The translations under genes were made by a program, and so were the position numbers. Under the pieces are notes generated by a model that was not told where the DNA came from, did not search any database, and saw only the letters and a list, made by a program, of their open reading frames with translations. DNA of 64,000 bases. Source: Flavobacteriales bacterium. Lineage in GTDB: Bacteria; Bacteroidota; Bacteroidia; Flavobacteriales_F; PHOS-HE28. The stretch spans positions 5,830 through 69,829 of the forward strand of contig JAMLHB010000003.1 in assembly GCA_023957375.1 (NCBI GenBank). Reading direction: 5' to 3'. Numbering within the stretch: position 1 is the stretch's first letter; each line of letters begins with the position of its first letter. Of the stretch, positions 489 to 34,555 are shown one piece after another.

Positions 489-3362
489 ATGCTTCGGAAA
501 ATACGCCTGTTCCTGTTGGCATTGCCATTGGCAACTGTTCCGCGGATTTCCTTGGCCCAGAACTTCAATTTCACCAGCGGCCCCATTCCGCTGTGCGACA
601 CCACCTACTTCACGGCCACGGTAAGCGGCATTGGCGCGCTGGTGTATCCGGGCAGCTTCTCCGACGGCTACTACCTGAGTGATGTGTGGCTGAACATCAC
701 CACCAACCACCCGCAAACCCTGCAGATCTTTTTAACCTCACCCAACGGCTTCGTGCTGCTGCTTTCGCAGTTCAATGGGGCGGGCGGGCAGAACTACACG
801 GACACCCACTTCAACGGCTGGCAGAACATCACCACTGGAACAGCACCCTTTACGGGCAGTTTCCTGCCCCAAGGCGGCTCTGACCTAGGCAACTACTTCG
901 CTGGTTGGAGCGGGGACGGTATCTGGACCCTGACGGTGATTGACACGGCTTGCGCCAATGGGGGTACCGGCCCAGACGGAGATTGGGTACCTGGCTCTTT
1001 CGGTGGTGGTGGCGGTGGCGGTGGTGGGCCCACTGGAGGAGCTGGCATGGGGTTTGGCTACAACATTGGCAACCCATGGGTTCATTTGCCGGATGTTACA
1101 GTCTACCTCTGTCCGGGCGGAAGTGTGGATATTCTGGGGTATTATTGGGAGAGTGTATATATTGGTGGTGTATTAGGGACCCCTGATCCACCAAACCCGA
1201 ATGCCGTGACCACCCCTGGGACGTATGGCGTCGTCGGCTCTCACTGGGATCAGAACTTCATCATCAATTCATACCCTGCAGATCCGCTTGGCCCGGACCA
1301 ATCCGTGGTGCAATGCGACCTTTCCGTTCCGGTGAATCTTGCCGCCCTCTTCCAGGTGACGGACTTAACCTTGACTTGGAGCTTTAACGGATCCCCAATC
1401 CCAGCTTCCACAGCCGTCTCCGCTACCAATGCCGGCGTGTACCAAGTGATCGGGCAGAACGCGAACGGTTGCAACGACACGGCCTTGGTCACCCTTGCTA
1501 ATGGAAGTGATTTTTTGGGCGCCGATCAATCGCTAAACATTTGCAACGGATCAAGCACGGACCTCACCACCTTGTTCCCCACTTCCGGGGCCACGGAAAC
1601 GTGGTTCTTCGGGGGCACCTCCATTCCTGCGCCTACTGCAGCAAGCAACCCAGGCACCTACACCTTGGTCGCAACGGCGGCATCGGGCTGCGCCGATACG
1701 GCTGAGGTGGTGCTGAACGCGCTGCCCGCCGTGGCCTTGGGCGCCGATCAAGCAGCCACGCTGTGCAGCAATGCAACCGTTGACCTTGCAGCGCTGTTCA
1801 CAACAACCGGCCTTTCCTCCGCATGGACCTTGAACAATGCAACTGTTCCAGACCCCACAGCCGTGGATACGGCTGGCCTTTACACCTTGGTAGCCACGAA
1901 CGGTTCCGGATGTTCAGACACTGCACAGGTGACCCTTGTTTCTGCCGCAGCCCCGGTGCTCGGGCCGGATGCAGCGCAAGCAACCTGCGAAGGCAACACT
2001 GTGGACCTGACAGCGAGCTTCAACCCGGCAGGTCTTACCACGGCATGGACACTGTCCGGTGCGGCAGTACCTGACCCCACTGCCGTTGGCGCCACCGGGC
2101 TTTACACATTGGTGGCCACCAATGCCGCTGGCTGCAGCGACACGGCCCAAGTAGCTGTGACGATCAACCCGGACCCGGTGTTGGGCGCCGACCAATCCAT
2201 CACCGCGTGCACCGGCCATCCCGTGAACTTGGGCAGCCTCTACGATACCGCCCCGCATGTTGCCGTATGGACGGTCAACGGCACGCCCGTTCCGGATCCG
2301 GCAGCGGTAACCAATGCGGGAAGCTATTTGCTCACCGTCACTTCATCGGAAGGATGCTCCGCAACGGCCACCGTGGACCTGGCCTTTGTGCCTGCGCCGG
2401 ACCTCGGCGCGGACATGGCCTTGACCATCTGCGCGGACAGCATGATCGACCTGGCCACCTTGTACCCCACCACAGGGCTTTCCGCCACGTGGACCCAGGG
2501 GAGCGCGCTGGTGACATACGCATCTGGCGTGGCGCTGCCGGGCATGTACCAGCTGGTAGTTTCCAATGGGGCATGCACCGATACGGCCAAAGTGGTGCTC
2601 ACGGTCAATCCGAACCCTTCCCTTGGCGAGGACCAACCCTTCACGCTGTGCCCCTGGCAAACGGTGAATTTGGGCACCTTGTTCCCAACGGACGGGCTCA
2701 GCACGGCCTTCACATTGAACGGCGTGCCCGTGGCCAACCCTGATTCCGTGCATGCGGCGGGGGTGTATGCCGTAACGGCCACGAACGCTGCGGGATGCAG
2801 TGACGTGGCAAACGCCATCATCACCAACATGGATTGCCTCTGCGAAGCGGACTTCCAAACGGATGCGCTTTGCTTGCAGGAACCTGCGCAGTTCACGCTG
2901 ATCGCGGATTCCACCGTGCAAGCCGTACACTGGGATTTTGGCGGTGCTGCAACTGCTTCCACGGAGCTGAACCCCGAAGTGCATTTTGAGGCGGGCCAGG
3001 ACGTGCCCGTCACCCTGCAAGCCACGCTCAGTTGCGGCGTGGTCACCGTGGAGCACATCGTACACGTCGAGGACTGCTCACAGAGCTGCCACCTGTGGTT
3101 TCCCAACTCCTTCACACCGGACAAGGACGACAAGAACGACATGTGGAACTGGGCCGGTGATTGCACCCCTGATCCGTACAAGCTGATGATCTTCAACCGC
3201 TGGGGCGAACTCATCTTCTCCACCACCGATCCGCATGATGCGTGGGACGGCACCTACGGCGGTGTGCCCTCGCCCATCGGCGTGTACGTGTACAAGGCCG
3301 AATACCAGTTTCCCTACCAGGATGCGCAGACGGCCATTGGCCATATCACGCTGGTGAGGTAA
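489..3362 (+). CDS. Large secreted T9SS cargo protein: signal peptide, proprotein-convertase P-domain-like region, poly-Gly linker, ~10 tandem Cys-containing Ig-like repeats, T9SS type-B C-terminal domain
   Basis: N-terminal signal peptide. Residues ~50-165 fit the P-domain pattern (IFLTSPNGF...WSGDGIWTLTVID). A G9 linker follows. The C-terminus HLWFPNSFTPDKDDKNDMW...YKLMIFNRWGELIF...GVYVYKAEYQF matches the gliding-motility-associated C-terminal (type B) sorting domain. Confidence 0.8.
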   Translation: MLRKIRLFLLALPLATVPRISLAQNFNFTSGPIPLCDTTYFTATVSGIGALVYPGSFSDGYYLSDVWLNITTNHPQTLQIFLTSPNGFVLLLSQFNGAGGQNYTDTHFNGWQNITTGTAPFTGSFLPQGGSDLGNYFAGWSGDGIWTLTVIDTACANGGTGPDGDWVPGSFGGGGGGGGGPTGGAGMGFGYNIGNPWVHLPDVTVYLCPGGSVDILGYYWESVYIGGVLGTPDPPNPNAVTTPGTYGVVGSHWDQNFIINSYPADPLGPDQSVVQCDLSVPVNLAALFQVTDLTLTWSFNGSPIPASTAVSATNAGVYQVIGQNANGCNDTALVTLANGSDFLGADQSLNICNGSSTDLTTLFPTSGATETWFFGGTSIPAPTAASNPGTYTLVATAASGCADTAEVVLNALPAVALGADQAATLCSNATVDLAALFTTTGLSSAWTLNNATVPDPTAVDTAGLYTLVATNGSGCSDTAQVTLVSAAAPVLGPDAAQATCEGNTVDLTASFNPAGLTTAWTLSGAAVPDPTAVGATGLYTLVATNAAGCSDTAQVAVTINPDPVLGADQSITACTGHPVNLGSLYDTAPHVAVWTVNGTPVPDPAAVTNAGSYLLTVTSSEGCSATATVDLAFVPAPDLGADMALTICADSMIDLATLYPTTGLSATWTQGSALVTYASGVALPGMYQLVVSNGACTDTAKVVLTVNPNPSLGEDQPFTLCPWQTVNLGTLFPTDGLSTAFTLNGVPVANPDSVHAAGVYAVTATNAAGCSDVANAIITNMDCLCEADFQTDALCLQEPAQFTLIADSTVQAVHWDFGGAATASTELNPEVHFEAGQDVPVTLQATLSCGVVTVEHIVHVEDCSQSCHLWFPNSFTPDKDDKNDMWNWAGDCTPDPYKLMIFNRWGELIFSTTDPHDAWDGTYGGVPSPIGVYVYKAEYQFPYQDAQTAIGHITLVR
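1269..2826 (+). repeat. Intragenic tandem repeats, ~10 copies of ~235-245 bp (~80 aa units)
   Basis: The protein shows a recurring unit LGADQ...C.G..VDL..L....GL...W.LNG..VPDP.AV...G.Y.LVATN..GCSDTA.V.L. The DNA copies are diverged but clearly related. Confidence 0.75.
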
Positions 3363-3373
3363 CGCGATCACGC

Positions 3374-3516
3374 TCGCCCGCGTTTGCAACGCGGGCGCAT
3401 CACCCCGGTCGTTTGCAACGATCAACCCTGATCCAGCCTCACGGTCCGCCAGGCCATTGTTGCGATGAGCGCGCTGCAAGCGCCTTGATCTTCGCCCGCG
3501 TTGCAAACGCGGGCGA
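3374..3516. terminator. Pair of REP-like GC-rich palindromic hairpins downstream of the T9SS gene, with a smaller related hairpin between them
   Basis: 3375-3397 is cgcccgcg-tttgcaa-cgcgggcg and 3492-3516 is tcgcccgcg-ttgcaaa-cgcgggcga (same element, loop inverted). 3409-3421 is tcgtt-tgc-aacga, sharing the GTTTGCAAC core. The first hairpin starts 13 nt after the stop codon. Confidence 0.5.
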
Positions 3517-3666
3517 GTGGGATTTCCTTGGTGCGCGCCCAGCGTTTGGCCACGGGAAGGCACCACTGCTGGGCAACCAGAAGGCATATTCCAAGTAAAG
3601 AGTTCATCGGTGAAGATAGGCTGCACTGCGGCCTATTTGCTTTGTGCCCGAAGCCAATTTCGAGAT

Positions 3667-3942
3667 ATGCGGATCCTGAAGGCCACCTACAATGAACTCC
3701 TTGGACGAGACGAGTGGATCATCAAGCGCAAAGCGATCATACAACGCGATGGAGGAGCTTGCCGCAACTGTGGATCAAGGGACCACCTTCAAGTTCATCA
3801 TCGGCAATATCACAAATGCCCAAAAACCGGATACAAAGTCGCGCCATGGTGCTATGCGGATCAATACCTGATCACGCTGTGCAACAATTGCCACAAACAA
3901 GGTCACCACGTTCATCACGTCCCCTGCTTCACAGTTAAATGA
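3667..3942 (+). CDS. Small HNH endonuclease (92 aa)
   Basis: MRILKATYNELL...CRNCGSRDHLQVHH...LCNNCHKQGHH is a Cys-box/HNH motif. Its stop TGA (3940-3942) overlaps the next ATG (3939-3941). Confidence 0.7.
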   Translation: MRILKATYNELLGRDEWIIKRKAIIQRDGGACRNCGSRDHLQVHHRQYHKCPKTGYKVAPWCYADQYLITLCNNCHKQGHHVHHVPCFTVK

Positions 3943-4532
3943 TCTTTAAACCCCCTGTTGCCATGAGCTTCATGAGCCGTATCTTCCAAAGAGCAGAAAA
4001 GGACACCGCCACTAAGGTGGCTGTAGCACCAGTTGATTTGGCGAATCCCACCACAACCCTCGTGGAACAGGAACTTTTTATTGACCGGGAACCACCCAGC
4101 CCCACCAAGGAATCCATGCGGACCCTCACCCGATTGGAGGAATTGGCCAGCACTGACCACCGAGAAGCGGGTCGCTTGGATGGGTTCACCTATCATGACA
4201 TGACGATTTGTGGCCAAGGGATAGAGCGGATCAAAGCCGAAATTCGCTGTGCTCTGGAGCAGGAGGTGAATCGGATCGGTCGATTTGTTGACCTGTTGGA
4301 CGTGGAGATCCGAAAGATCCAGGACACCGGCAGCGCCAATTTACTTCTTGACCTTCAGGCCAATCGCGACCAAATGGAACGGGATCGCTATCGGCTGAAC
4401 GAACAGCAGATGCTGGTCGTGGGCAACTCAGGTCTTGCCGACCTCCCGACAACCACGTATGAAGCCGGATTCCGACAGGGATATCGGGAATACTTGGAAT
4501 CCATGAACTTCATCCTAAAATACCAGGGATGA
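3939..4532 (+). CDS. Hypothetical protein (197 aa), translationally coupled to flanking genes
   Basis: ATGA overlaps at both ends (3939-3942 and 4529-4532). No motif recognised. Lower GC than the flanks. Confidence 0.55.
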   Translation: MIFKPPVAMSFMSRIFQRAEKDTATKVAVAPVDLANPTTTLVEQELFIDREPPSPTKESMRTLTRLEELASTDHREAGRLDGFTYHDMTICGQGIERIKAEIRCALEQEVNRIGRFVDLLDVEIRKIQDTGSANLLLDLQANRDQMERDRYRLNEQQMLVVGNSGLADLPTTTYEAGFRQGYREYLESMNFILKYQG

Positions 4533-5527
4533 CCATGCTGCACTTCTTCTCCATCCTCACAGGCGACCGTTACGCGACAGTTGCCAAGCACGGCCCGGTC
4601 TCCCGAAGGAAGGTGATTGCCATGGGAAGTGGCCTTCTGTTGGTAACGGGATTGTGGTTCTTCATTGGTTTCAACCTTGGCATGAATGCATTCGGCATGA
4701 AACCATTCCCCGCCCTCGCGCTCGGAGCTTCAATGAGCGCGGTGGTCTTCTTGGTGGATCGCATGGTACTGCTCAGCAGTGGGAAGCACTGGGGCATTGT
4801 TGTCTCCCGGATAGCACTTGCACTATTGATGTCCTTCCTCGGTGGCATTGGCCTTGACCTGTACATTCTACGAGCTGAGATCGATCAGACGGTTGTGGGC
4901 ATGCACAGGGAGGCACAAGCCGAGATGGCGAGTTCACTTGCCATGGGTTATGCTGACAAGCAAAATGATCTCGCCTTGGTAGTTGAACATGCCCGCCAAG
5001 AGCTGGCTGCAGCTGAGGCAGCCTGGCTCAAAGAGTTGGATGGCACCGGTGGTACCGGCCGCTATGGTGCAGGAGCGGTAGCCCGTTCAAAGGAGCGACT
5101 GGTGCATGATCGAAAGGGGGCACTTGCTGATGCACAGCAACGCGCGGACCTGCTGTCCCAAAAGATCGCTGCTGAACAACTGGCAAGGACATCCACATTG
5201 GCCCAAGCACAACGCGCCACAGGTCTATTTGACCGCATCCACGCCATGAAGAACTATATTGCCACGGACCCCTTGGTGCGGATCGTTTATCTACTGCTCA
5301 CCTTGCTCTTGATCCTTGTGGAACTATCCCCGCTGGTGGTGAAGTACGGCTTTCCCACAACGGCGTACGAGCAAGGCATCGAAGCGGCGAACCACATGCA
5401 TTGCGAGCAGGTGAGGCTGTTGGCGCACAAACAGGAGCAATTCAATGCCCGGAGCGCTGCGATGTCCGTGGAAGAACTCCGCTCCCGGGCACGGTTGCAG
5501 GCCATAACAGAAGCATACCAAGGTTGA
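4529..5527 (+). CDS. Membrane protein with two N-terminal TM helices, a long coiled-coil and a C-terminal TM helix (DUF4407-like architecture)
   Basis: Hydrophobic segments VIAMGSGLLLVTGLWFFIGF and ALALGASMSAVVFLVDRMVLL, a long Ala/Gln/Glu-rich helical middle, and a C-terminal TM segment IVYLLLTLLLILVELSPLVV. Confidence 0.6.
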   Translation: MTMLHFFSILTGDRYATVAKHGPVSRRKVIAMGSGLLLVTGLWFFIGFNLGMNAFGMKPFPALALGASMSAVVFLVDRMVLLSSGKHWGIVVSRIALALLMSFLGGIGLDLYILRAEIDQTVVGMHREAQAEMASSLAMGYADKQNDLALVVEHARQELAAAEAAWLKELDGTGGTGRYGAGAVARSKERLVHDRKGALADAQQRADLLSQKIAAEQLARTSTLAQAQRATGLFDRIHAMKNYIATDPLVRIVYLLLTLLLILVELSPLVVKYGFPTTAYEQGIEAANHMHCEQVRLLAHKQEQFNARSAAMSVEELRSRARLQAITEAYQG

Positions 5528-5613: not shown

Positions 5614-6642
5614 ATGCCTGTCAATAAGCACGCCCTGATCCGCTACCAAACCTTGGACCGCTGCTTTGCAAGTCGCGGCAGGCAATACTTCTTGGATGAT
5701 CTGTTGGAGGCATGCAACGAAGCCCTATTCGAGTATGACAGCAACGCAAAGGGCATTTCCCGCAGGCAGCTCTTCGAGGACATCAAGTATATGGAAAGCG
5801 CCCAAGGGTGGTCCATCCCGCTTGAACGGATCAAGGAGGAAAACAATCGGACCTGGTACCGTTACGCAGAACCTGGTTTTTCCATCAACAAGCAGCCGAT
5901 CAACGTGGATGAAGCCGCCCTGCTCAAGGAAGCGTTGCTCACCATGGGCCGCTTCAAGGGCATGCCCCAGTTCCAATGGGTGAATGAGCTCATGGTCCGA
6001 TTGGAGGCCGGATTCGGATTGCGGCAAGGTGCGGCGCATGTCATCGAGTTCGAGGAGAACCCCTATTTGAAGGGAAGTGAGCAGATCACCCCACTCTTTC
6101 ACTTCATTCTGGGAAAGCAGGTCTTGGCTGTGGAATACCAGAGCTTTAAGCATCCTGCCCCAACTTCTCTCCGTTTCCATCCATATTACCTGAAGCAGTA
6201 CAACAACCGGTGGTTTATTCTTGGCTGGAATGAACTCCTGGGGCGGCTCACCAATTTGGCGCTGGACCGGATCCAATCGCTTCGCCCGGTGCAAGGGGAA
6301 TTCCTACCCAACAGCGCCATCGATTTCTCCGAATACTTTGAAGACGTGGTGGGAGTTACAGTGCCGGAAGGGTCCGTGGAAAACGTGGAACTTCTGGTCG
6401 GTGGATCGTTATGGCCCTACATCGAGACGAAACCTCTGCATGGGTCGCAAAAAGTGATCTCACGGGATGAGGCGGGTGTTCGGGTGAAGTTGCAGGTGAA
6501 ATTGAACCATGAACTAGTGGCGTTGATCCTTTCCTTCGGAAGTGATGTGGAAGTGCTAAAGCCACCCACGCTCAGGGCATCCATGGCAGACCATGCGAAG
6601 GCAGCTCAATGCCGTTACCAAAAGAGCAAAGACCATGAGTGA
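5614..6642 (+). CDS. WYL-domain transcriptional regulator (HTH-WYL-WCX, BrxR/CapW-like)
   Basis: The N-terminal HTH region runs from MPVNKHALIRYQTLDRCF. The WYL signature is FHPYYLKQYNNRWFILGWNELLGRLTNLALDRI. Its stop TGA 6640-6642 overlaps the ATG of the next gene at 6635. Confidence 0.75.
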   Translation: MPVNKHALIRYQTLDRCFASRGRQYFLDDLLEACNEALFEYDSNAKGISRRQLFEDIKYMESAQGWSIPLERIKEENNRTWYRYAEPGFSINKQPINVDEAALLKEALLTMGRFKGMPQFQWVNELMVRLEAGFGLRQGAAHVIEFEENPYLKGSEQITPLFHFILGKQVLAVEYQSFKHPAPTSLRFHPYYLKQYNNRWFILGWNELLGRLTNLALDRIQSLRPVQGEFLPNSAIDFSEYFEDVVGVTVPEGSVENVELLVGGSLWPYIETKPLHGSQKVISRDEAGVRVKLQVKLNHELVALILSFGSDVEVLKPPTLRASMADHAKAAQCRYQKSKDHE

Positions 6643-9256
6643 AGATGCACATACGGACGGGGTCTATCCGGCAAGGAATATCGGCACGGCAGCAACCTTG
6701 GTCCTGTTAGGGGCCAATCGCGCAATGACTGCGGAGGCCATTGCCGATCGCCTGCGCATTGAAGGGAGCACGGACGATCCATGTTCCGCTTCAGACGTGC
6801 TGGCATGGGCCAATCAGAAAGGCTACTTGAATGAGCAGGGGAAGATCTGGTTTAGCGGATTGAACGAAGCCTTGGTTCTGCGTAATGACTTTCGAGGTGC
6901 CCTATTCTGGAGCAATTGGAGTCGATCGTTCGGATATCAGCGCCTCGCCGCCGCTGCCGTGCTCAGCATCAGCCGGTTCTTGCAGACACACCCGGACCAC
7001 CCATCAACCGATTCCATGCGCCAGCTCCTTATGGCTGGCCTTCACCATGAGTCGCTCGCGCAGCTCTTACGCACGATCGGTGAAATTGCCGGTGCGCCCA
7101 ACCTTCCCGAACGGCTGGGGATTGCAGCCTGGTCCGAATTACGGATCCGGGACCTTGGCCGGCTCATTAGCGCACTGAGCCCAGGCGTAGGCTTCACGGG
7201 GGAACATTCTTTTTCCATTGGGGATGAGTGGTGGCAGTTTGCCCACGCCAAAAAGGTCGAAGGGCGGCGCGCAATTACGTTGAAAAAGGAAATCAGTTCG
7301 CTTCGACTTACCACCGACGAGTTCCCGTATGACCACTGGATACAACTGCGTGCACCTGGTCGGGAGTTCTTTTTTCCGGATGCGCAATTTGCCGCACCTG
7401 CCTTTTTGCACCATCGGTCTCTTGTGCTGCGGGACATCCGGGTCACCGGTTATTGTGCCGATGCGGATGAACGGGATGGACTACGGCTTATGCTGTCGGC
7501 ACAGGGTATCGAGCATGACCTCCATGTCAGAAACGGGCAGGGCGCCATCCCTCTCCCATCCACCCCGGGCACTTCAGTAGTGACCTGCCCGGTGGACGCT
7601 AAGAAAGCCCTGCTCTATGCCAAGGAGTTCTTACGCACTGCTACCCAACCCGGACACCGGCGACTTTTCCTGATCGCTCCAATAGCTTGTTTCCATGAAA
7701 TAAACGCTGAGTGGGATAAGGTGCGCAGGGAAATGGTGGAGCGGGATCTCTTGGATTGCATGTTGACACTCCCGCAGGTAGGAAAGCAGATGTCCGACCT
7801 CGGCATGTTCGTATTGGACAACAACAAGTGGGAGGATGCAAAGGGCCTGGTATTGTTCGGAGGTGGAACCAACAACATGAACATAACCAATCCCGACGAT
7901 CCAATAGTCCGTAAGTTGGATGGTCTGAAAACGTTCGCCTTCAGGATGTCCCTCCAAATGGCAGCACGGGATCGCAAAGGCGCCTGTACGTTGATCACGA
8001 ATGACATCATTCTAACCGATCCCAACTGCCGACTCGCTATAGCATATTGTTATCATCCATTTTCAGTGATAAGCAGTTCTTTCCCATGGGAGGAATTGAA
8101 GCAATTCAAGGAAGTTGGAAGTATCATGGACTTTTCGATCGGAGTCACAGTTGATGCCAATGGAGACATTACACGCGAAGGTGTGATCAAGGCGCTGCGG
8201 AAGGACATGGCCTTGCCGGAATACGTTCGACACGAATTGGCTGAACGATACATGGAACAACAGATGGAGAAGATCAGGACCTATAAGCCCCAATGGGGCT
8301 ACCCCGATGCATACATCCGGATCCCATCGATTGAAGCCCAACTTCGGAAAGTGGAGGGCCTCAAACGTTCATGGGGGCTTCTCCCCATGTCCGAGACGGA
8401 AGGTGTATCGGACGATTGGGTCGCCAACGTGGTGGACAACATCCTGTTGCGCAACGAGGACCCTGAGCAGTGCAAGCTGAACCTGGGTTACATCATTCGT
8501 GAGCTGCAGCGCGTGGAGCGTACCCGTGCCTTGGCCGATGCCGAGGAAGCCTACAAAGCCTACCGCCATGATCTGGGCAACATGACCGGCCGCGTCAGGG
8601 ACAGCATTTCACTCCTGAAAGGGCAAATGAAGAAGCCTGATGCATGGACGGCATTAGCCACGGATACGCATGGCCGCTTGGAGGGCACCCTTTCCACCCT
8701 CGATCATTACTTTGAAAAGATGAAAGGCCTACTCACCGATCAGGAAAAATGCTTCACCAATGAGCACTATTCCCTAACAGCAGTGGAGCTGTCGGATGTC
8801 CTGAACAATGTGATCGGCGGTTTTAAAGATCCCGATGTCCGGTTGGAATACCGGGGTGGCCCTGCCCAGGTATGGGCCGATCGGCAAAAGCTGGAGCAAC
8901 TGATCACCAACCTGGTGTTAAATGCGATCGGCCATGGCAAGGTAGCGGGCAGGGAATTGTGCATCGTTCTGGACCGCATGGATGAATGGGACCAAGACTG
9001 GGGCGAGCCAGGCAGCATACCGCTTTTCATTGGCAATAACGGCAAAGCCTTTGAGCAGAGCTTTGACGAATTGACCAAGCAAGGAAGGCGCTCCAAACAA
9101 AGCAAAGGTGAAGGCCTTGGCCTGTACTTGGCACGCAAATGGGCAAAGGGCATGGGCGGTGAACTGGAAATGGCAAATGGAACGTTTCCTGCTATTGATG
9201 ACATAAGTCCACCGCTTTCCGTCGGCTTCTTCCTCCACCTGCGACAGGTTGAATAA
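6635..9256 (+). CDS. Cytoplasmic histidine-kinase-like protein (873 aa): ~600 aa uncharacterised N-terminal region, putative H-box, C-terminal HATPase_c
   Basis: C-terminal N-box LITNLVLNAIGHG, G1 FIGNNGKAF and G2 GEGLGLYLARKWAKGMGGEL. Candidate H-box YRHDLGNMTG. No TM segments are evident. Lower GC than the flanks. Confidence 0.7.
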   Translation: MSEDAHTDGVYPARNIGTAATLVLLGANRAMTAEAIADRLRIEGSTDDPCSASDVLAWANQKGYLNEQGKIWFSGLNEALVLRNDFRGALFWSNWSRSFGYQRLAAAAVLSISRFLQTHPDHPSTDSMRQLLMAGLHHESLAQLLRTIGEIAGAPNLPERLGIAAWSELRIRDLGRLISALSPGVGFTGEHSFSIGDEWWQFAHAKKVEGRRAITLKKEISSLRLTTDEFPYDHWIQLRAPGREFFFPDAQFAAPAFLHHRSLVLRDIRVTGYCADADERDGLRLMLSAQGIEHDLHVRNGQGAIPLPSTPGTSVVTCPVDAKKALLYAKEFLRTATQPGHRRLFLIAPIACFHEINAEWDKVRREMVERDLLDCMLTLPQVGKQMSDLGMFVLDNNKWEDAKGLVLFGGGTNNMNITNPDDPIVRKLDGLKTFAFRMSLQMAARDRKGACTLITNDIILTDPNCRLAIAYCYHPFSVISSSFPWEELKQFKEVGSIMDFSIGVTVDANGDITREGVIKALRKDMALPEYVRHELAERYMEQQMEKIRTYKPQWGYPDAYIRIPSIEAQLRKVEGLKRSWGLLPMSETEGVSDDWVANVVDNILLRNEDPEQCKLNLGYIIRELQRVERTRALADAEEAYKAYRHDLGNMTGRVRDSISLLKGQMKKPDAWTALATDTHGRLEGTLSTLDHYFEKMKGLLTDQEKCFTNEHYSLTAVELSDVLNNVIGGFKDPDVRLEYRGGPAQVWADRQKLEQLITNLVLNAIGHGKVAGRELCIVLDRMDEWDQDWGEPGSIPLFIGNNGKAFEQSFDELTKQGRRSKQSKGEGLGLYLARKWAKGMGGELEMANGTFPAIDDISPPLSVGFFLHLRQVE

Positions 9257-9261
9257 AATCA

Positions 9262-10401
9262 ATGGACATGAAGATTCTACTGATCGATGACGAACCACAA
9301 GAACAGTTCCGCGCACTCGCGCAGGCGCAGGAAATTGAGATCTTGCATGAACCCGATCGCCACGTTGACGAGTGCTTGGAGTTCCTGCGGCGAGAATATT
9401 GGGATATCGATGCGGTGATCGTGGATGGCAGACTGGATCCCAACCAACAATTTCAAGGCTTGAGCCGAACGACCGGCCGCATCCAGGAATTGAACGGGAC
9501 AAACCATTGGTGGAAACCATTTTGCGTCTGGACCGGCTATGCAGAGGATATAAGGAACGTGGTGGACCAGCATATCCAGGTCTTCGATAAGGCAGATGGC
9601 GGGCAACCGGTCCTGGACTACCTCAAAGGCATCATTGAAGATCTTCCCGCATACAGGGTGAAGATGAAATTCAAAGATGCCTTGCAAGCTTGTGACACAG
9701 CAAAATTGACCCCTGACTCAAAGAACCACATCAACGCCATACTTCGGAACCTGTTCGGAAACAGCACGCTTGATGAAGATTACCCCAAGCATTTACGCAG
9801 CTGCCTTGAATCGATGTTCCGCTCCGCCCATGGTCTTGGGCTCGTGCATGAGAAGTGCATTGAGAAGAACAGGGTGAATCTTACTGCATGTTCCTTGTTC
9901 CTTAGTGGACATCCCGTAGAAAAGCTCAATGTGAAATGTACCAAGCGCCACGCGCCGGAACTGGTCGGGCAACACATACACCATATCCTCAATGTCACCA
10001 ATGCATTCAGCCACAGCGAAGACCCGATCAAGGGCAAGCTCAATGCATATCGTGAATGGATAAAAACACCCTATCTATTGTACAGCCTTACTTTCGAACT
10101 ACTGGATGTGTTGGTGTGGTACAAAGCGTATGCTGAGGCTCATCCAAACATAGAAGACAACAAGAAATTATGGGTGGTTGATTCCCAAGAGGCCGAAAAC
10201 ATCCAAATGATTCCGGGCGTGATTACATTCATCCACCCGCAAGGGTATGGATTTTTCAGTGCGAGCACGGATGGCTCCGAAGCTTATATCCCACACGATG
10301 TGGTATCCGCGAATGAGCTCATCCAGGGGATGAAGATCGAGGTGGCTACAGTAACAAAAGCTAAAGGTCCGGTGGTGAAGAAGCTCAGAATCCTGGATTG
10401 A
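9262..10401 (+). CDS. Response-regulator receiver protein with an unknown middle region and a C-terminal cold-shock (OB-fold nucleic-acid-binding) domain
   Basis: REC: MKILLIDDE...DAVIVDGRLDP...CVWTGY...FDKADG. C-terminus: GVITFIHPQGYGFFSASTDGSEAYIPHDVV...GMKIEVATVTKAKGPVVKKLRI, which resembles the CspA pattern G.V.WFN..KGFGFI...G.DVFVH.S.......G..V.F....G.KGP.A..V. Confidence 0.65.
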   Translation: MDMKILLIDDEPQEQFRALAQAQEIEILHEPDRHVDECLEFLRREYWDIDAVIVDGRLDPNQQFQGLSRTTGRIQELNGTNHWWKPFCVWTGYAEDIRNVVDQHIQVFDKADGGQPVLDYLKGIIEDLPAYRVKMKFKDALQACDTAKLTPDSKNHINAILRNLFGNSTLDEDYPKHLRSCLESMFRSAHGLGLVHEKCIEKNRVNLTACSLFLSGHPVEKLNVKCTKRHAPELVGQHIHHILNVTNAFSHSEDPIKGKLNAYREWIKTPYLLYSLTFELLDVLVWYKAYAEAHPNIEDNKKLWVVDSQEAENIQMIPGVITFIHPQGYGFFSASTDGSEAYIPHDVVSANELIQGMKIEVATVTKAKGPVVKKLRILD

Positions 10402-10879
10402 AGCGAATATTCGTTCCGTCCGCCTCAATCACCCTCTCCACCTGCTCGCGTGGGAACCCCTTCCCCACAAAATACCGCACCACCTTCTCACGGCGGATCC
10501 ATGGGTCGGTTTCCTGGGTGCGCTCCCAGCACTTGGCCACGGCCAATTTCAGTTGTTCGCTTTCCTCCTCCCCATCGATGGCCTTTAAGCCTGAGGTGAT
10601 GCAGCTTGCCGAAACTCCTTTGGCCTTCAGCGCCAGCTCTATCTTCCTGCGCCCCCATCCCTTCTGGCGGCTCTTGCTCACGGCGTAGTGCTCCGCGAAG
10701 CGCGCCTCGTTGAGGAAGCCCTCACTAATGAGCTGCGCAATGACCTGTTCCACATCTTCCTTGTGGCTGCCCCAGGCATAGAGCTTGTCGCGCACTTCCT
10801 GTTGGGCGCGTTCTTGGCGGGCGCAGTAGGCGCGGGCTTTGGAGAGCAACGCGGTCAACATGGTTGGAGGCATGGCCAC
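10385..10879 (-). CDS. recX: Recombination regulator RecX
   Basis: 164 aa with the RecX-like helical repeat pattern (ARAYCARQERAQQEVRDKL...VIAQLISEGFLNEARFAEHY). Its 3' end overlaps the island gene convergently by ~17 nt. Confidence 0.65.
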   Translation of the reverse strand: MAMPPTMLTALLSKARAYCARQERAQQEVRDKLYAWGSHKEDVEQVIAQLISEGFLNEARFAEHYAVSKSRQKGWGRRKIELALKAKGVSASCITSGLKAIDGEEESEQLKLAVAKCWERTQETDPWIRREKVVRYFVGKGFPREQVERVIEADGTNIRFNPGF

Positions 10880-31822: not shown

Positions 31823-32539
31823 TTACTGCTTGGAGATCAAGTCAACGCCAATACCCACCAATGTAATCGCTATGGCAAAGGAGATCATGCCCAGGATGTA
31901 CGCAAGGAATGCCTTCAGGTAGTTCAACAGCTTGCCTTGCCCATAAAACTGCCCGACCGCCCACGTGATATAGGCAAGCACCACCACCGAACCGAACATC
32001 ACCAAGTTGATGCTGAGCAATTCCTGGGCGATGGCAAGGAATGACAAAACAAGCATGCCCATGCCCATGACAAAGCACAGGAGCACCAAGATCTCGTAGA
32101 GGTTGAAGGGGTGCTTGCGAAAGAACAGCTTCGTCCAGAGTGCGATGAATATCCCCATGATGATATTGGCATACCCGTAATGGCCCTGTATCCACGCCCA
32201 AACCGTAAACACCGCCGATTTCACGGGTGGTTGGAAATTCCCGTATTCTGCTTCGATGTGAAAATAGTGGTTCACCACGGAGTAGAACAGTGAGGTCACG
32301 ATGATGAAGAGGATGGGCTTCACCAATCGGTTCCTGTTCACCAACAGGTAATCCCGGATGCTTTTGCCCGGCCTGGCCAGCATCTCCCTTACGGTGTACA
32401 AGATCCCCCGTTCCAAATGCAGCACATGCTGGACCTCATGGAGCAGGTAGTGCCCATCGATCCGCTTTACTTCCGCTGCTTGCCCGCAATTGGGGCAAAA
32501 CTTGGCGTTCACCTCCTTGGCGCAGTTCGCACAGTTCAT
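31823..32539 (-). CDS. DUF3667-like protein (N-terminal zinc ribbon + multi-TM)
   Basis: MNCANCAKEVNAKFCPNCGQ zinc ribbon followed by ~5 TM helices. Lower GC. Confidence 0.55.
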   Translation of the reverse strand: MNCANCAKEVNAKFCPNCGQAAEVKRIDGHYLLHEVQHVLHLERGILYTVREMLARPGKSIRDYLLVNRNRLVKPILFIIVTSLFYSVVNHYFHIEAEYGNFQPPVKSAVFTVWAWIQGHYGYANIIMGIFIALWTKLFFRKHPFNLYEILVLLCFVMGMGMLVLSFLAIAQELLSINLVMFGSVVVLAYITWAVGQFYGQGKLLNYLKAFLAYILGMISFAIAITLVGIGVDLISKQ

Positions 32540-32734
32540 TCTTTTGGCGGGCTACTTTCTTCTGTCCGTTTGATCCTCGTGCAGGTACTTCGCTTCGAGA
32601 CCCTAATCCTCCCGCAAGGTCTTCGCATCGAGACCCCGCAGTTTGCGCGATGCCGCGGTGAAGCTACGCCAATATCAACCCGTAATGTTTTGGTGCGCAG
32701 GGTCCAGAAACGGAGACACTGAGCGAAGGTAAAG

Positions 32735-32955
32735 AGCCTTCATGCGGTGCCGAAGGTACCGGCGTAGACCGCCTTGCCTTTCCGTAGCGGGCCGACATTA
32801 GGACACGAGCGTGGACGCTCGCGTCAGAGATGGGGACACTGAGCGAAGGTAAAGGGCCTTCATGCAGTGCCGAAGGTAGCGGCGTAAAACGCGTTGCCTT
32901 TCCGCTGCGGGCTGGCATTAGGACACGAGCGTGGACGCTCGCGTCAGAGATGGGG
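32735..32955. repeat. Two tandem extra copies of the ~105 bp GT39 5' leader (hairpin + start codon region)
   Basis: Both copies match 31503-31620 (cttcatgcggtgccgaaggtagcggcgtaaaacgcgttgcctttccgcagcgggccggcattaggacacgagcgtggacgctcgcgtcagagatggg) with few mismatches. Confidence 0.85.
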
Positions 32956-33753
32956 TCAAAGAGCAAGCTCGTCAATAATGATATATTTCCGAAAATCAAT
33001 TCCAGGTTTGAAGCGTTTAACTTTACCATCATAAATTATCTTCCCATCAATTCTCCAACGCAGTCGCCAATCATAGTGGGCCGGATGAATAATTGGCCTT
33101 AATAATCTTCTCGTTCGCTCAATAAGCTTTACATTCCATATGTAAGTCGGTGGAGTATTGTCATCTTTTTTGTATCGCTGGTAATTCCATAGTTCAATTG
33201 TTTCATCTGCAAGTTGAGTTAAACTTGTCTGCAAATGTTCTGTCAAGATTAAATAGAGCTCCTTGTTGTCGTCGGAGTTGAGGTTATAATTCTCGGGCGG
33301 GTCAGGAAACTCTACAAAACCCAATCGCTTCCAAAAAGGCTCTGAATCGCTTGGAGAGCATTGCAAATCAACAACACAAACTCCGCTGTCTTTCAGAAAA
33401 TCGAGTACAAAACCAGTCAATTTTTTACCAATTCCTTTCTCGCGATGAGTATGCTTCACCTTCGCTATCTCAATTCTTGCTGTCTTGCCTGTAGTTCGTC
33501 GCCAAGTTGCAAACCCAATAGTTCTATTGTTGAGTGAGATTGTCACCAACTCGTTGTTATCAAACGAAGATTTAATAATGTTCCAATTACAATAAAATCC
33601 GCCTCCAGTTTTTTCCTTCTCCGAACGCAACCACTGTTCTATTTCTTTTACCTGCTTGTTTGTCGGCGAAAGCGATACCCGAAAATTGTCGGTTCCCCTT
33701 TGTATTTCGGCCGCCATAATGTTGCAAAAGTGCAAGGTACCCTCTTTCCGCAT
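32956..33753 (-). CDS. GNAT family N-acetyltransferase, in a markedly low-GC islet
   Basis: Acetyl-CoA binding motif HREKGIGKKLTGFVLDFL. AT-rich codon usage unlike the flanks. Start uncertain (ATG at 33753 or 33717). Confidence 0.6.
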   Translation of the reverse strand: MRKEGTLHFCNIMAAEIQRGTDNFRVSLSPTNKQVKEIEQWLRSEKEKTGGGFYCNWNIIKSSFDNNELVTISLNNRTIGFATWRRTTGKTARIEIAKVKHTHREKGIGKKLTGFVLDFLKDSGVCVVDLQCSPSDSEPFWKRLGFVEFPDPPENYNLNSDDNKELYLILTEHLQTSLTQLADETIELWNYQRYKKDDNTPPTYIWNVKLIERTRRLLRPIIHPAHYDWRLRWRIDGKIIYDGKVKRFKPGIDFRKYIIIDELAL

Positions 33754-33805
33754 ACGCGGAATACGGAGTTTTCAACAACGACCACACTTGGCCATGTACA
33801 TCCCT

Positions 33806-34555
33806 TCACCGCTTCCCCAACAGCCCCCACCCCATCAATCCTGTCCGTGCCAAAAAGTACCGCCAGCTCACGTTCAGCACGCCGAAGCCATACTTCATGC
33901 TGCGGCTGAAGTTGATGCTGCTGGCCTCATCGAAGTACTTGGTGGGGCAAGTCACTTCCGCAATGGCGAAGCGGTTCCAGAAGATCTGGCCGATCATCTG
34001 GTTGTCGAACACGAAATCGTCGGAGCAGCGGTGGTATTCGCACTTGCGCAGCACATCGGCGCTGTAAGCGCGGTAGCCGGTGTGGTACTCGCTGAGCTTC
34101 TCGCCCATCAGCATGTTCTGGGTGAGGGTGAGCAGGCGGTTGGCGATGTATTTGTACAATGGCATGCCGCCCTTGAGCGCACCGCCGCCTAAGATGCGCG
34201 AGCCGAAGACCACGGGATAGACCCCATCGCCGATCACCGCCACCATGGCCGTAATGAGCTTGGGGGTGTACTGGTAGTCGGGGTGCAGCATCACCACGAT
34301 GTCGGCGTCCAGTTCCAGGGCCTTGTTGTAGCAGCTCTTCTGGTTGCCGCCGTAACCCTTGTTCACCTCATGCACCACGATGTGGCGAATGCCGATGCGC
34401 TTGGCCTCCTCCACGGTGTTGTCAGGGCTGTTGTCGTCCACGAGCACCACCTCATCCACGATGTCGAACGGGATTTCGTCGTAGGTCTGCTTCAGGGTGT
34501 GCTGGGCCTTGTAGGCGGGGAGCACCACAACTACTTTCTGGTTTCGGTACATGGT
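33806..34555 (-). CDS. GT2 glycosyltransferase (polyprenol-phosphate sugar transferase, ArnC/DPM1-like)
   Basis: MYRNQKVVVVLPAYKA...VVLVDDNSPDNT...DAD GT-A fold motifs. Start chosen at the internal Met. Confidence 0.75.
   Translation of the reverse strand, partial: TMYRNQKVVVVLPAYKAQHTLKQTYDEIPFDIVDEVVLVDDNSPDNTVEEAKRIGIRHIVVHEVNKGYGGNQKSCYNKALELDADIVVMLHPDYQYTPKLITAMVAVIGDGVYPVVFGSRILGGGALKGGMPLYKYIANRLLTLTQNMLMGEKLSEYHTGYRAYSADVLRKCEYHRCSDDFVFDNQMIGQIFWNRFAIAEVTCPTKYFDEASSINFSRSMKYGFGVLNVSWRYFLARTGLMGWGLLGKR

Follow-up and report, generated by a model that had tools for sequence, protein, structure and literature searches.

Within a stretch of 64,000 nucleotides (nt) of DNA from a Flavobacteriales bacterium (NCBI GenBank assembly GCA_023957375.1, contig JAMLHB010000003.1, positions 5,830 to 69,829 of the forward strand), hereafter called the window and numbered from its first letter, three genes at positions 5614 to 10401 encode a WYL-type regulator, a histidine-kinase-like protein and a protein with a receiver domain (REC). 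On balance we favour the view that they constitute a defensive phosphorelay under WYL control, in which a sensor kinase derived from a methylase and a target-recognition domain (TRD) would activate a receiver-gated HEPN-like RNase equipped with an OB fold, and which in most members of the family would serve as a backup to restriction-modification (R-M). An anti-phage function of the module is probable. More tentatively, we propose that such kinases, with their methylase/specificity input, report DNA state or phage anti-restriction proteins, with phosphotransfer to a receiver-gated, PrrC-like HEPN RNase. The kinase is named MHK here, for methylase-derived histidine kinase, and its REC - HEPN-like - cold-shock-domain (CSD)-like partner RCSD.

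Gene structure of the operon

The three open reading frames (ORFs), already recognised in a preliminary description of this DNA, form a tightly packed operon organised as follows.

5614..6642, plus strand: WYL-WCX protein of 342 amino acids (aa), from ATG 5614 to stop TGA 6640-6642 (Pfam WYL 2.9e-10, WCX 8e-13; PADLOC WYL models 1.7e-25)
6635..9256, plus strand: MHK, a soluble protein of 873 aa that resembles sensor histidine kinases, its sensor part probably descended from HsdM and an HsdS TRD
9262..10401, plus strand: RCSD, a 379-aa REC - HEPN-like - S1/CSD-like OB protein, predicted to be a phospho-activated effector

The ATG of MHK at 6635 produces an 8-nt overlap with the end of the WYL gene, and RCSD starts at 9262, 5 nt past the MHK stop at 9256. 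The NCBI gene models use an upstream ATG for MHK (6593, 42 nt earlier, giving 887 aa) and the second ATG for RCSD (9268), while alignments of homologues place the start of the MHK homologues at the equivalent of 6635. Hydrophobicity at the level of a transmembrane (TM) segment was found in none of the three proteins, the maximum Kyte-Doolittle mean over 19 residues being 1.12. Hence the preliminary description was right in reporting a WYL gene directly before the kinase-like and REC-effector genes, a WYL stop overlapping the kinase start and a kinase-like protein of 873 aa without TM segments. A scan for sigma-70 promoters and terminators returned sites that did not rise above shuffles, the promoter model being inappropriate for Bacteroidota. 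RCSD and the recX ORF are convergent, and their 3' ends share 17 nt (10385-10401).

The MHK sensor kinase

The C-terminal part of MHK contains the elements of a histidine kinase core.

8567..8569, plus strand: codon of His645 in the H-box YRHDLGN, the predicted autophosphorylation site, invariant in 20/20 aligned MHKs
8879..9172, plus strand: HATPase_c, MHK residues 749-846 (Pfam E 4e-8; PDB histidine kinase 7z8n E 1e-5; motif table)

All the best sequence matches of the HATPase_c region, in PDB as well as in NCBIfam, are sensor histidine kinases. His645, the candidate phospho-His, lies upstream of HATPase_c in each of the 20 aligned MHKs, and the N-box, G2 and G3 are kept across the same alignment. 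Both the candidate H-box and the clear HATPase_c noted from the sequence are thus confirmed.

The N-terminal ~600 aa, by comparison, had been considered a region without any recognisable motif, i.e. an orphan sensor, and this did not hold up in profile searches, where relatives show HsdM_N, N6_Mtase and an HsdS-type TRD. With the window MHK as query, Pfam, NCBIfam, PADLOC and PHROGs returned HATPase_c as the sole match, and Pfam no N6_Mtase. When six distant MHKs were scanned against Pfam, they matched HsdM_N, N6_Mtase (E to 4e-79), Eco57I, Methylase_S and HATPase_c, and against PADLOC the distant proteins matched MTase_I (1e-127) and Specificity_I (1e-10 to 1e-15). In the contigs of distant relatives the gene just upstream of RCSD encodes without exception a protein of 800-890 aa with N6_Mtase, Methylase_S and HATPase_c. 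The sensor part of MHK, its N-terminal 600 aa, thus appears by homology to be a type I R-M methyltransferase and a half-HsdS TRD by descent, an origin that is clear in the relatives.

In order to relate the window clade (defined below) to these proteins, its profile was aligned by hhalign with that of the MHKs bearing a methyltransferase, which gave a match with 99% probability and an E of 4.4e-18 over query profile columns 519-865; hmmsearch of the clade against the relatives, from the end of the TRD through the kinase, gave 1e-16 to 1e-21. Upstream of residue ~519 a single collinear N6_Mtase trace was obtained (hhalign E 0.002, 47 columns), with which a weak hmmsearch domain agrees. Two features of the window protein follow from these alignments.

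7670..7891, plus strand: putative vestige of the N6_Mtase C-terminal motif (VRREMVERDLLDCMLTLPQ...VLDNNK), MHK residues ~346-419 (hhalign E 0.002 over 47 columns; weak collinear hmmsearch domain; motif table)
8189..8344, plus strand: C-terminal part of an HsdS-type TRD (…YVRHELAERYMEQQ…YIRIPSIEAQ), MHK residues ~519-570 (start of the hhalign match; the equivalent region of relatives hits Methylase_S and Specificity_I)

Judged by profile homology, these matches show descent of the window MHK from HsdM/HsdS for residues ~519-570 and indicate it for residues ~346-419. The methylase motifs are degenerate in the window clade, the equivalent of motif IV being CPVD and that of motif I FFPDAQF. About half of the distant MHKs have a plausible motif I (GxG) together with a plausible motif IV ((N/S)PPF), and degenerate motifs are found in others as well (SPPL in L005, APPI in L010, NFPL in L007 and LPPI in L014, L numbers denoting related loci).

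The RCSD partner protein

Pfam, NCBIfam, PADLOC and PHROGs gave no match to the window RCSD, with neither a receiver nor a CSD reported by Pfam. Other evidence divides the protein into three domains.

9262..9636, plus strand: receiver domain, residues 1-125, with D9/D10, D55 (codon 9424-9426), T91-G92 and K110
9637..10200, plus strand: HEPN-like helical domain, residues 126-313, with R179 (9796-9798), E183 (9808-9810) and H251 (10012-10014)
10201..10398, plus strand: probable five-strand OB barrel, S1/cold-shock-like, with a GYGFF RNP1-like motif (DSSP strands 317-377, predicted local distance difference test (pLDDT) about 90; PF22707 E 0.0098)

The N-terminal domain adopts a receiver fold with its acidic pocket, acceptor Asp, Thr/Ser and Lys. 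Among 135 diverse full-length RCSDs, D10, D55 and K110 are strictly conserved, as are R179 and H251 of the middle domain, and position 91 is Ser or Thr in 100%; E183 is Glu in 133/135 and Asp in 2/135. No other position is strictly conserved in this set. An E183-x3-R187 arrangement (Ex3[KR]) is present in the window RCSD and in about half of the members. Modelled alone, the middle domain reaches a pLDDT of 81.6. A 'zinc knuckle' formed by H196/C199/C226/H230 was considered as a feature of the RCSD family and rejected, these positions being ~45% conserved; they are a clade-specific cluster.

As for the C-terminus, PF22707 (S1CSD-TOTE-2) scores an E of 0.01 on the last 79 aa, which is below threshold, CspE-like 3i2z gives an E of 1.7 and PF00313, the Pfam CSD, does not match. 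Precomputed PF22707 matches exist for the RCSD homologues P0006 and P0007, and the model folds the last ~65 residues with confidence into a barrel of five strands (pLDDT about 90). Because of this barrel, the GYGFF motif and the weak S1CSD-TOTE-2 and CspE scores, an S1/CSD-like OB fold is likely, though below family thresholds.

The architecture read from the letters, a receiver, a ~200-aa middle called unknown and a C-terminal CSD, is therefore retained in part. The receiver stands, on its fold and on the conserved D10, D55, S/T91 and K110, in spite of the silence of Pfam. The C-terminal CSD finds support in the model barrel and GYGFF and remains weak at the level of sequence matches, and the middle is now assigned as HEPN-like with R179, E183 and H251, a fold that is not secure.

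Family extent, gene neighbourhoods and a fusion variant

The size of the RCSD family was estimated by an exhaustive profile search with clustering at 50% identity. With a cut-off of E <= 1e-30 the family comprises at least 406 clusters, and with E <= 1e-10 it comprises 1145. A word-indexed homologue search had found four MHK relatives, with three close homologues, and 13 RCSD relatives; it was saturated by ordinary kinases and methylases and so underestimated the family, which the exhaustive search corrected. Related loci, 59 in number, were drawn from genomes, metagenomes, viral contigs, plasmids and phages, and with the window they fall into 36 clusters at 90% RCSD identity. In all 31 assessable clusters MHK lies immediately 5' of a REC-type RCSD, the two ORFs overlapping or nearly abutting. 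An N6-methylase gene is found within 3.5 kb downstream in 20/28 clusters, mostly in the order hsdM-hsdS-...-hsdR and often overlapping or after a gap of 0-20 nt, and looser criteria add two R-M clusters, L020 (hsdR first) and L045 (hsdM fragment). The other neighbours include AbiEi/AbiEii, McrBC, GmrSD, a PLD nuclease, YjiT/YjiV-like giant helicases, a DEAD/UvrD helicase and an ABC ATPase.

Bacteroidota account for most of the family, and the hits in genomes all belong to Bacteroidota or Balneolaceae. Complete examples exist in Flavobacterium daejeonense DSM 17708 and in Myroides odoratimimus, here on a mobilizable plasmid, pFM-G13, with the accession NZ_CP037428.1 and the proteins WP_131541125-WP_131541132. 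The RefSeq names of the plasmid pair are 'N-6 DNA methylase' and 'hypothetical protein', names because of which defence annotation probably misses the family. In Rufibacter roseus KCTC 42217 (L019/L026) the order MHK-RCSD-HsdM-HsdS-GmrSD-GmrSD-HsdR occurs in a prophage predicted by IMG/VR, directly after an N-acetylmuramidase gene, and this island may be prophage-borne defence cargo. Human faeces yielded a phage-like contig of 82 kb that carries a further complete example.

Three metagenomic loci carry a fusion variant, which combines an RCSD-type HEPN-like domain and OB with no receiver.

L050:1689-3056, L051:309-1604 and L052:182-1513: TRD-HEPN-OB fusion proteins with the motif ...YILRELLSDYV.EQA...IAVPSLEKQ

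In these proteins of 431-455 aa the N-terminal ~200 residues match the TRD of the MHK profile with 28 bits. No MHK gene precedes them in L050-L052, and in L050 the fusion gene is flanked by a WYL gene on one side and by an ABC-ATPase gene (AAA_15/AAA_21) on the other. Such a fusion is the arrangement expected if a TRD sensor controls the HEPN-OB effector, the His-Asp relay being one of two ways to connect them; the rare TRD-HEPN-OB proteins would thus bypass the phosphorelay.

A WYL gene is situated directly upstream of MHK, on the same or the divergent strand, in most related loci. Hence the search for further triplets of WYL, histidine kinase and REC/CSD genes, suggested in the preliminary description, yielded many loci with a constant MHK-RCSD pair and a WYL gene in most of them, not in all. 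Defence operons typically have WYL regulators (PMC12839542, citing BrxR), and the WYL-WCX protein is a probable ligand-responsive transcriptional regulator of the operon. No model for an N-terminal helix-turn-helix (HTH) matched it in the Pfam scan, and no inverted repeat of at least 8 nt that could serve as operator was found upstream in the window, L001 or L004.

Proposed mechanism and alternative explanations

Beyond the gene structure and residues described above, we infer a trigger, phosphotransfer, RNase activity and a defence phenotype that would fit together as follows. The HsdS-like helical region of MHK would run into the His-containing dimerisation helix and HATPase_c, so that a signal at the methylase/TRD-derived sensor would lead to autophosphorylation on His645. 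The phosphate would then pass to Asp55 of the RCSD receiver, and phosphorylation would switch on the HEPN-like domain, most likely for cleavage of RNA held by the cold-shock-like OB fold. RNA cleavage would shut down translation and abort the infection. In most members the module comes first in a type I R-M operon and might form a second line of defence after restriction, in the manner of PrrC. The window clade would be a derived version, with lost methylase motifs and no R-M neighbour, carried on a ~7-kb block at recX.

In favour of this scheme speak the constant MHK-RCSD pairing, the origin of the sensor and the TRD-HEPN-OB fusions. The surroundings also point to defence, with R-M and other defence genes nearby, with occurrences on a plasmid, a phage-like contig and a predicted prophage, and with a WYL regulator of the kind common in defence operons; in the window, the low GC of the block and the direct repeat around it count in the same direction. 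Several points weigh against this scheme. The Asp of the G1-box (DxGxG), which contacts adenine in GHKL ATPases, is replaced by Asn (N-x-G-K) in all 20 MHKs, Asn801 in the window protein, and because of this ATP-dependent autophosphorylation is not assured; the universal change might reflect a different nucleotide, an altered chemistry or a non-ATP phosphodonor. As regards the sensor, a methylase-like ancestry of residues 1-345 in the window clade could not be demonstrated by hhalign and hmmsearch on the N-terminal 520 aa and is unproven, since these gave the 47-residue vestige only. On the effector side, a Foldseek search of PDB with the model of the RCSD middle domain gave nothing significant, for which reason the HEPN assignment is supported and not secure. 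The Arg of the canonical HEPN Rx4-6H motif is also missing, as positions -4 to -6 from the invariant H251 are never Arg; some HEPN families have a conserved H without R, and some such domains are non-catalytic, e.g. MtlR (PMC3710099). No PADLOC model (PADLOC 2.0.0) matches any RCSD tested. Finally, the window clade has no R-M neighbour, and because of this the idea of a second line behind R-M is not directly transferable to the window.

The same linkage to R-M could be read differently, with the module as a regulatory two-component system for the neighbouring R-M, where MHK would monitor chromosome methylation or the R-M complex and phosphorylated RCSD, with a non-catalytic HEPN-like domain and a CSD, would bind RNA and so tune the stability or translation of hsd transcripts, e.g. 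so that restriction is delayed when the genes enter a new host (restriction alleviation). That the module heads type I R-M operons in the same orientation, often at a distance of 0-20 nt, fits such a role, and CSDs are classic RNA chaperones. However, 8/28 clusters, including the window, are without a methylase gene within 3.5 kb downstream and still keep all the conserved residues, and the strictly invariant R/E/H set is what is expected of a catalytic site. Moreover, the TRD-HEPN-OB fusions adjoin an ABC-ATPase gene and not an R-M system, and a dedicated WYL transcription regulator is already there. We therefore regard a regulator of R-M as unlikely.

Decidedly less probable is a self-contained sensor of self and non-self based on methylation, whereby MHK would methylate its own host sites and signal at unmethylated foreign ones, with the RNase in place of the restriction endonuclease. 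EcoKI-type (M-halfS)2 type I methyltransferases read methylation state, and the architecture of MHK mimics this (M-halfS)2 form; plausible motifs I and IV in about half of the distant MHKs, and N6_Mtase matches to 4e-79, would also agree with such an activity, so that the mechanism is possible in motif-intact MHKs. It is very unlikely for the window protein. The motifs are degenerate in the window clade and likewise in L005, L010, L007 and L014. The TRD of MHK, furthermore, neither is hypervariable nor co-varies with the neighbouring HsdS. Between L005 and L032, identity amounts to 86% in the MHK TRD, against 38% in the adjacent HsdS and 90% in HsdM.

Two candidate properties of the TRD were rejected on such comparisons: a specificity shared with the neighbouring HsdS, where generic similarity to HsdS TRDs only was found, and hypervariability, since in close MHK pairs the TRD is at least as well conserved as the remainder of the protein. 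It was also observed that the neighbouring HsdS is swapped among close relatives (L005/L032; L009/L022/L024/L025) and that the MHK TRD does not follow the change in R-M specificity. The conserved TRD argues against a diversifying, sequence-specific reader of DNA and is compatible with a conserved ligand. Returning to the defensive phosphorelay, two candidate triggers seem likeliest, with no choice between them: an anti-restriction protein of a phage, directed at the DNA-binding surface of HsdM/HsdS, or a general DNA state; precedents for the sensing of anti-restriction factors are PrrC and PARIS (PMC1484252; 10.1101/2024.01.29.577857).

That the window genes are the decaying remnant of a system once linked to R-M, or else a two-component system of the ordinary housekeeping kind without immune role, has the lost methylase motifs, the missing R-M partner and the housekeeping flanks (recX, RNase G) in its favour and is hard to credit against intact ORFs of equal length in four relatives (52-76% identity, more than 150 invariant N-terminal positions), the retention of all kinase, REC and R/E/H residues, a block that looks horizontally inserted, the lack of TM or periplasmic sensor features such as housekeeping kinases typically have and an RCSD in which Pfam recognises no DNA-binding output domain.

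The locus in the window and its clade

The window groups with L001-L004 and L012 in a clade in which genes for an HNH protein, a 197-aa protein, DUF4407, WYL, MHK and RCSD occur with no adjacent R-M system, and it is because of this absence that the R-M context was invisible to the preliminary description. Identity among the four MHKs of the clade is 52-76%, over 150 positions do not vary within the N-terminal 600 aa, and the kinase, REC and R/E/H residues are all intact, so the genes look functional and not decaying. The remaining features of the block are the following.

3523..3555: left member of a 33-nt direct repeat, with 88% identity to the other at 10510-10542; it probably marks the left edge of an inserted block of ~7 kb
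3667..3942, plus strand: small HNH endonuclease of 91 aa, first gene of the block (ATG 3667; PHROGs HNH families, best E 5.8e-11; homologue in L012)
3939..4532, plus strand: 197-aa protein whose gene shares 4 nt with the following one (homologue with 77% identity in L012; conserved only in the window clade)
4529..5527, plus strand: DUF4407 membrane protein of 332 aa (PF14362 E 3.7e-38; maximum Kyte-Doolittle 19-residue mean 2.52; in L001, L002, L004 and L012)
10510..10542: right member of the 33-nt direct repeat, located within recX (10385-10879, minus strand) (repeat search; RecX domains by Pfam)

The GC content of the ~7-kb block is 0.52-0.55 compared to 0.58-0.63 in the flanks, which are housekeeping genes (recX, RNase G), and in L001 a 3' fragment of recX (1463-1615) is present at the left edge of the block. 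Together, the low GC, the 33-nt repeat and the L001 recX fragment suggest that the block was inserted at recX. The block contains no integrase gene, and an extended duplication of recX was rejected, as the 33-nt core alone aligns.

The 197-aa protein has no match in Pfam, PADLOC, NCBIfam or PHROGs. Its gene and that of DUF4407, on which the literature is sparse, co-occur with the module in the window clade only, and the pair is possibly a separate two-gene system. Between the block and a 957-aa ORF (489-3362) lie two copies, 118 nt apart, of a 24-nt self-complementary GC-rich element (TCGCCCGCGTTTGCAACGCGGGCG; 3374-3397 and 3492-3515), which may be REP-like or terminator hairpins. The 957-aa product has a signal-peptide-like N-terminus and many ~75-aa Cys-containing repeats, and is probably secreted or surface-exposed. 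Elsewhere in the window, a GC dip at 32001-34000 (0.494 vs about 0.61 around) suggests another foreign insertion.

Significance and comparison with known systems

A central question about defence systems is by what means they detect infection, and here the ancestry of MHK (HsdM and TRD) together with a His-Asp read-out makes sensing directly testable, with tractable members in cultured strains and on one complete plasmid. If our reading is true, defensive two-component signalling would extend beyond Detocs, and the phospho-receiver would represent a new mode of regulation for HEPN RNases, RCSD being the first receiver-controlled HEPN nuclease. The family would also provide a second, mechanistically different case of the PrrC principle, i.e. 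an RNase backup wired to type I R-M, and reveal a link, not recognised before, between surveillance by R-M and abortive infection. Neither a methylase-kinase fusion nor a REC-HEPN protein was found described in the literature searched, the coverage of which is incomplete so that a prior description is possible; the papers on CoCoNuT, BREX diversity, EVE domains, DefensePredictor and 'embedded systems' hold unrelated kinase or REC contexts only.

Compared to the type I R-M core (HsdM and HsdS) and to fused M-S enzymes, most MHK N-termini have the same composition, HsdM_N and N6_Mtase with one TRD. They differ in their fusion to a histidine-kinase core, in catalytic motifs that many members have in degenerate form and the window clade has lost, and in a TRD that is conserved and not hypervariable. 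The regulator resembles the BrxR/CapW type as a WYL and WCX protein at the head of its operon, co-directional or divergent, whereas neither an N-terminal HTH model nor an upstream inverted repeat was found here. Unlike the Csm6/Csx1 CARF-HEPN proteins and the HEPN-MNT toxins, RCSD lacks the Arg of Rx4-6H and has a phospho-receiver as regulatory domain.

PrrC and RloC are HEPN RNases deployed jointly with R-M systems (PMC3710099), with the catalytic triads R320/E324/H356 in PrrC (PMC1484252) and R692/E696/H737 in RloC (PMC2610378). RCSD shares their R-x3-E...H set through R179, E183 and H251, a likeness that consists in the residue pattern only. A linkage to R-M is seen for the family (20/28 clusters) and not for the window. 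The module is predicted to be normally silent and to give a second-line abortive response when restriction is bypassed, as PrrC and RloC do. In contrast to RCSD, which would be gated by its receiver and a kinase and adds a CSD-like OB fold, PrrC and RloC are gated by an N-terminal ABC-ATPase domain of their own polypeptide. PrrC is encoded between hsdS and hsdR, whereas the MHK-RCSD module precedes hsdM, and it also needs R349 of its Rx6H motif (PMC3025547), a residue without counterpart in RCSD.

The closest parallel in signalling logic is Detocs, composed of DtcA, DtcB and DtcC, in which DtcA is a kinase with a TPR sensor, DtcB a stand-alone receiver that acts as buffer and DtcC an N-terminal REC joined to a cell-arresting effector, PNP in about 80%, the effector domains being modular; detection of the system required all three genes (Rousset et al., bioRxiv 10.1101/2023.01.24.525353). 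In both cases the gene of a cytoplasmic sensor histidine kinase lies beside that of a REC-effector, with a predicted flow from the infection signal to His~P, Asp~P and the effector. However, the MHK sensor would be derived from HsdM/HsdS and has no TPR match in Pfam; the preliminary description was correct that a REC-only buffer gene is missing, as neither the window nor any of the related loci examined has a stand-alone REC gene. The effector is HEPN-like with an OB fold, compared to the PNP ATP nucleosidase of DtcC, so that of the earlier suggestion of a nucleic-acid-binding CSD effector in place of PNP the CSD-like OB is likely, and a HEPN-like, probable RNase domain has to be added to it. 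The Asn in the MHK G1-box, the usual location in a type I R-M operon and the preceding WYL gene are further differences, and PADLOC 2.0.0, for which the inclusion of Detocs models is unconfirmed, matched neither the window MHK nor any RCSD tested. Because of the absence of a TPR sensor, of DtcB and of a PADLOC match, and because of the different effector, the module is not Detocs. Hence, what endures of the proposal of a Detocs-like module is the logic of a soluble kinase acting on a REC-gated effector, with a likely role in defence, and not the membership: the module works like Detocs and is not a member of it.

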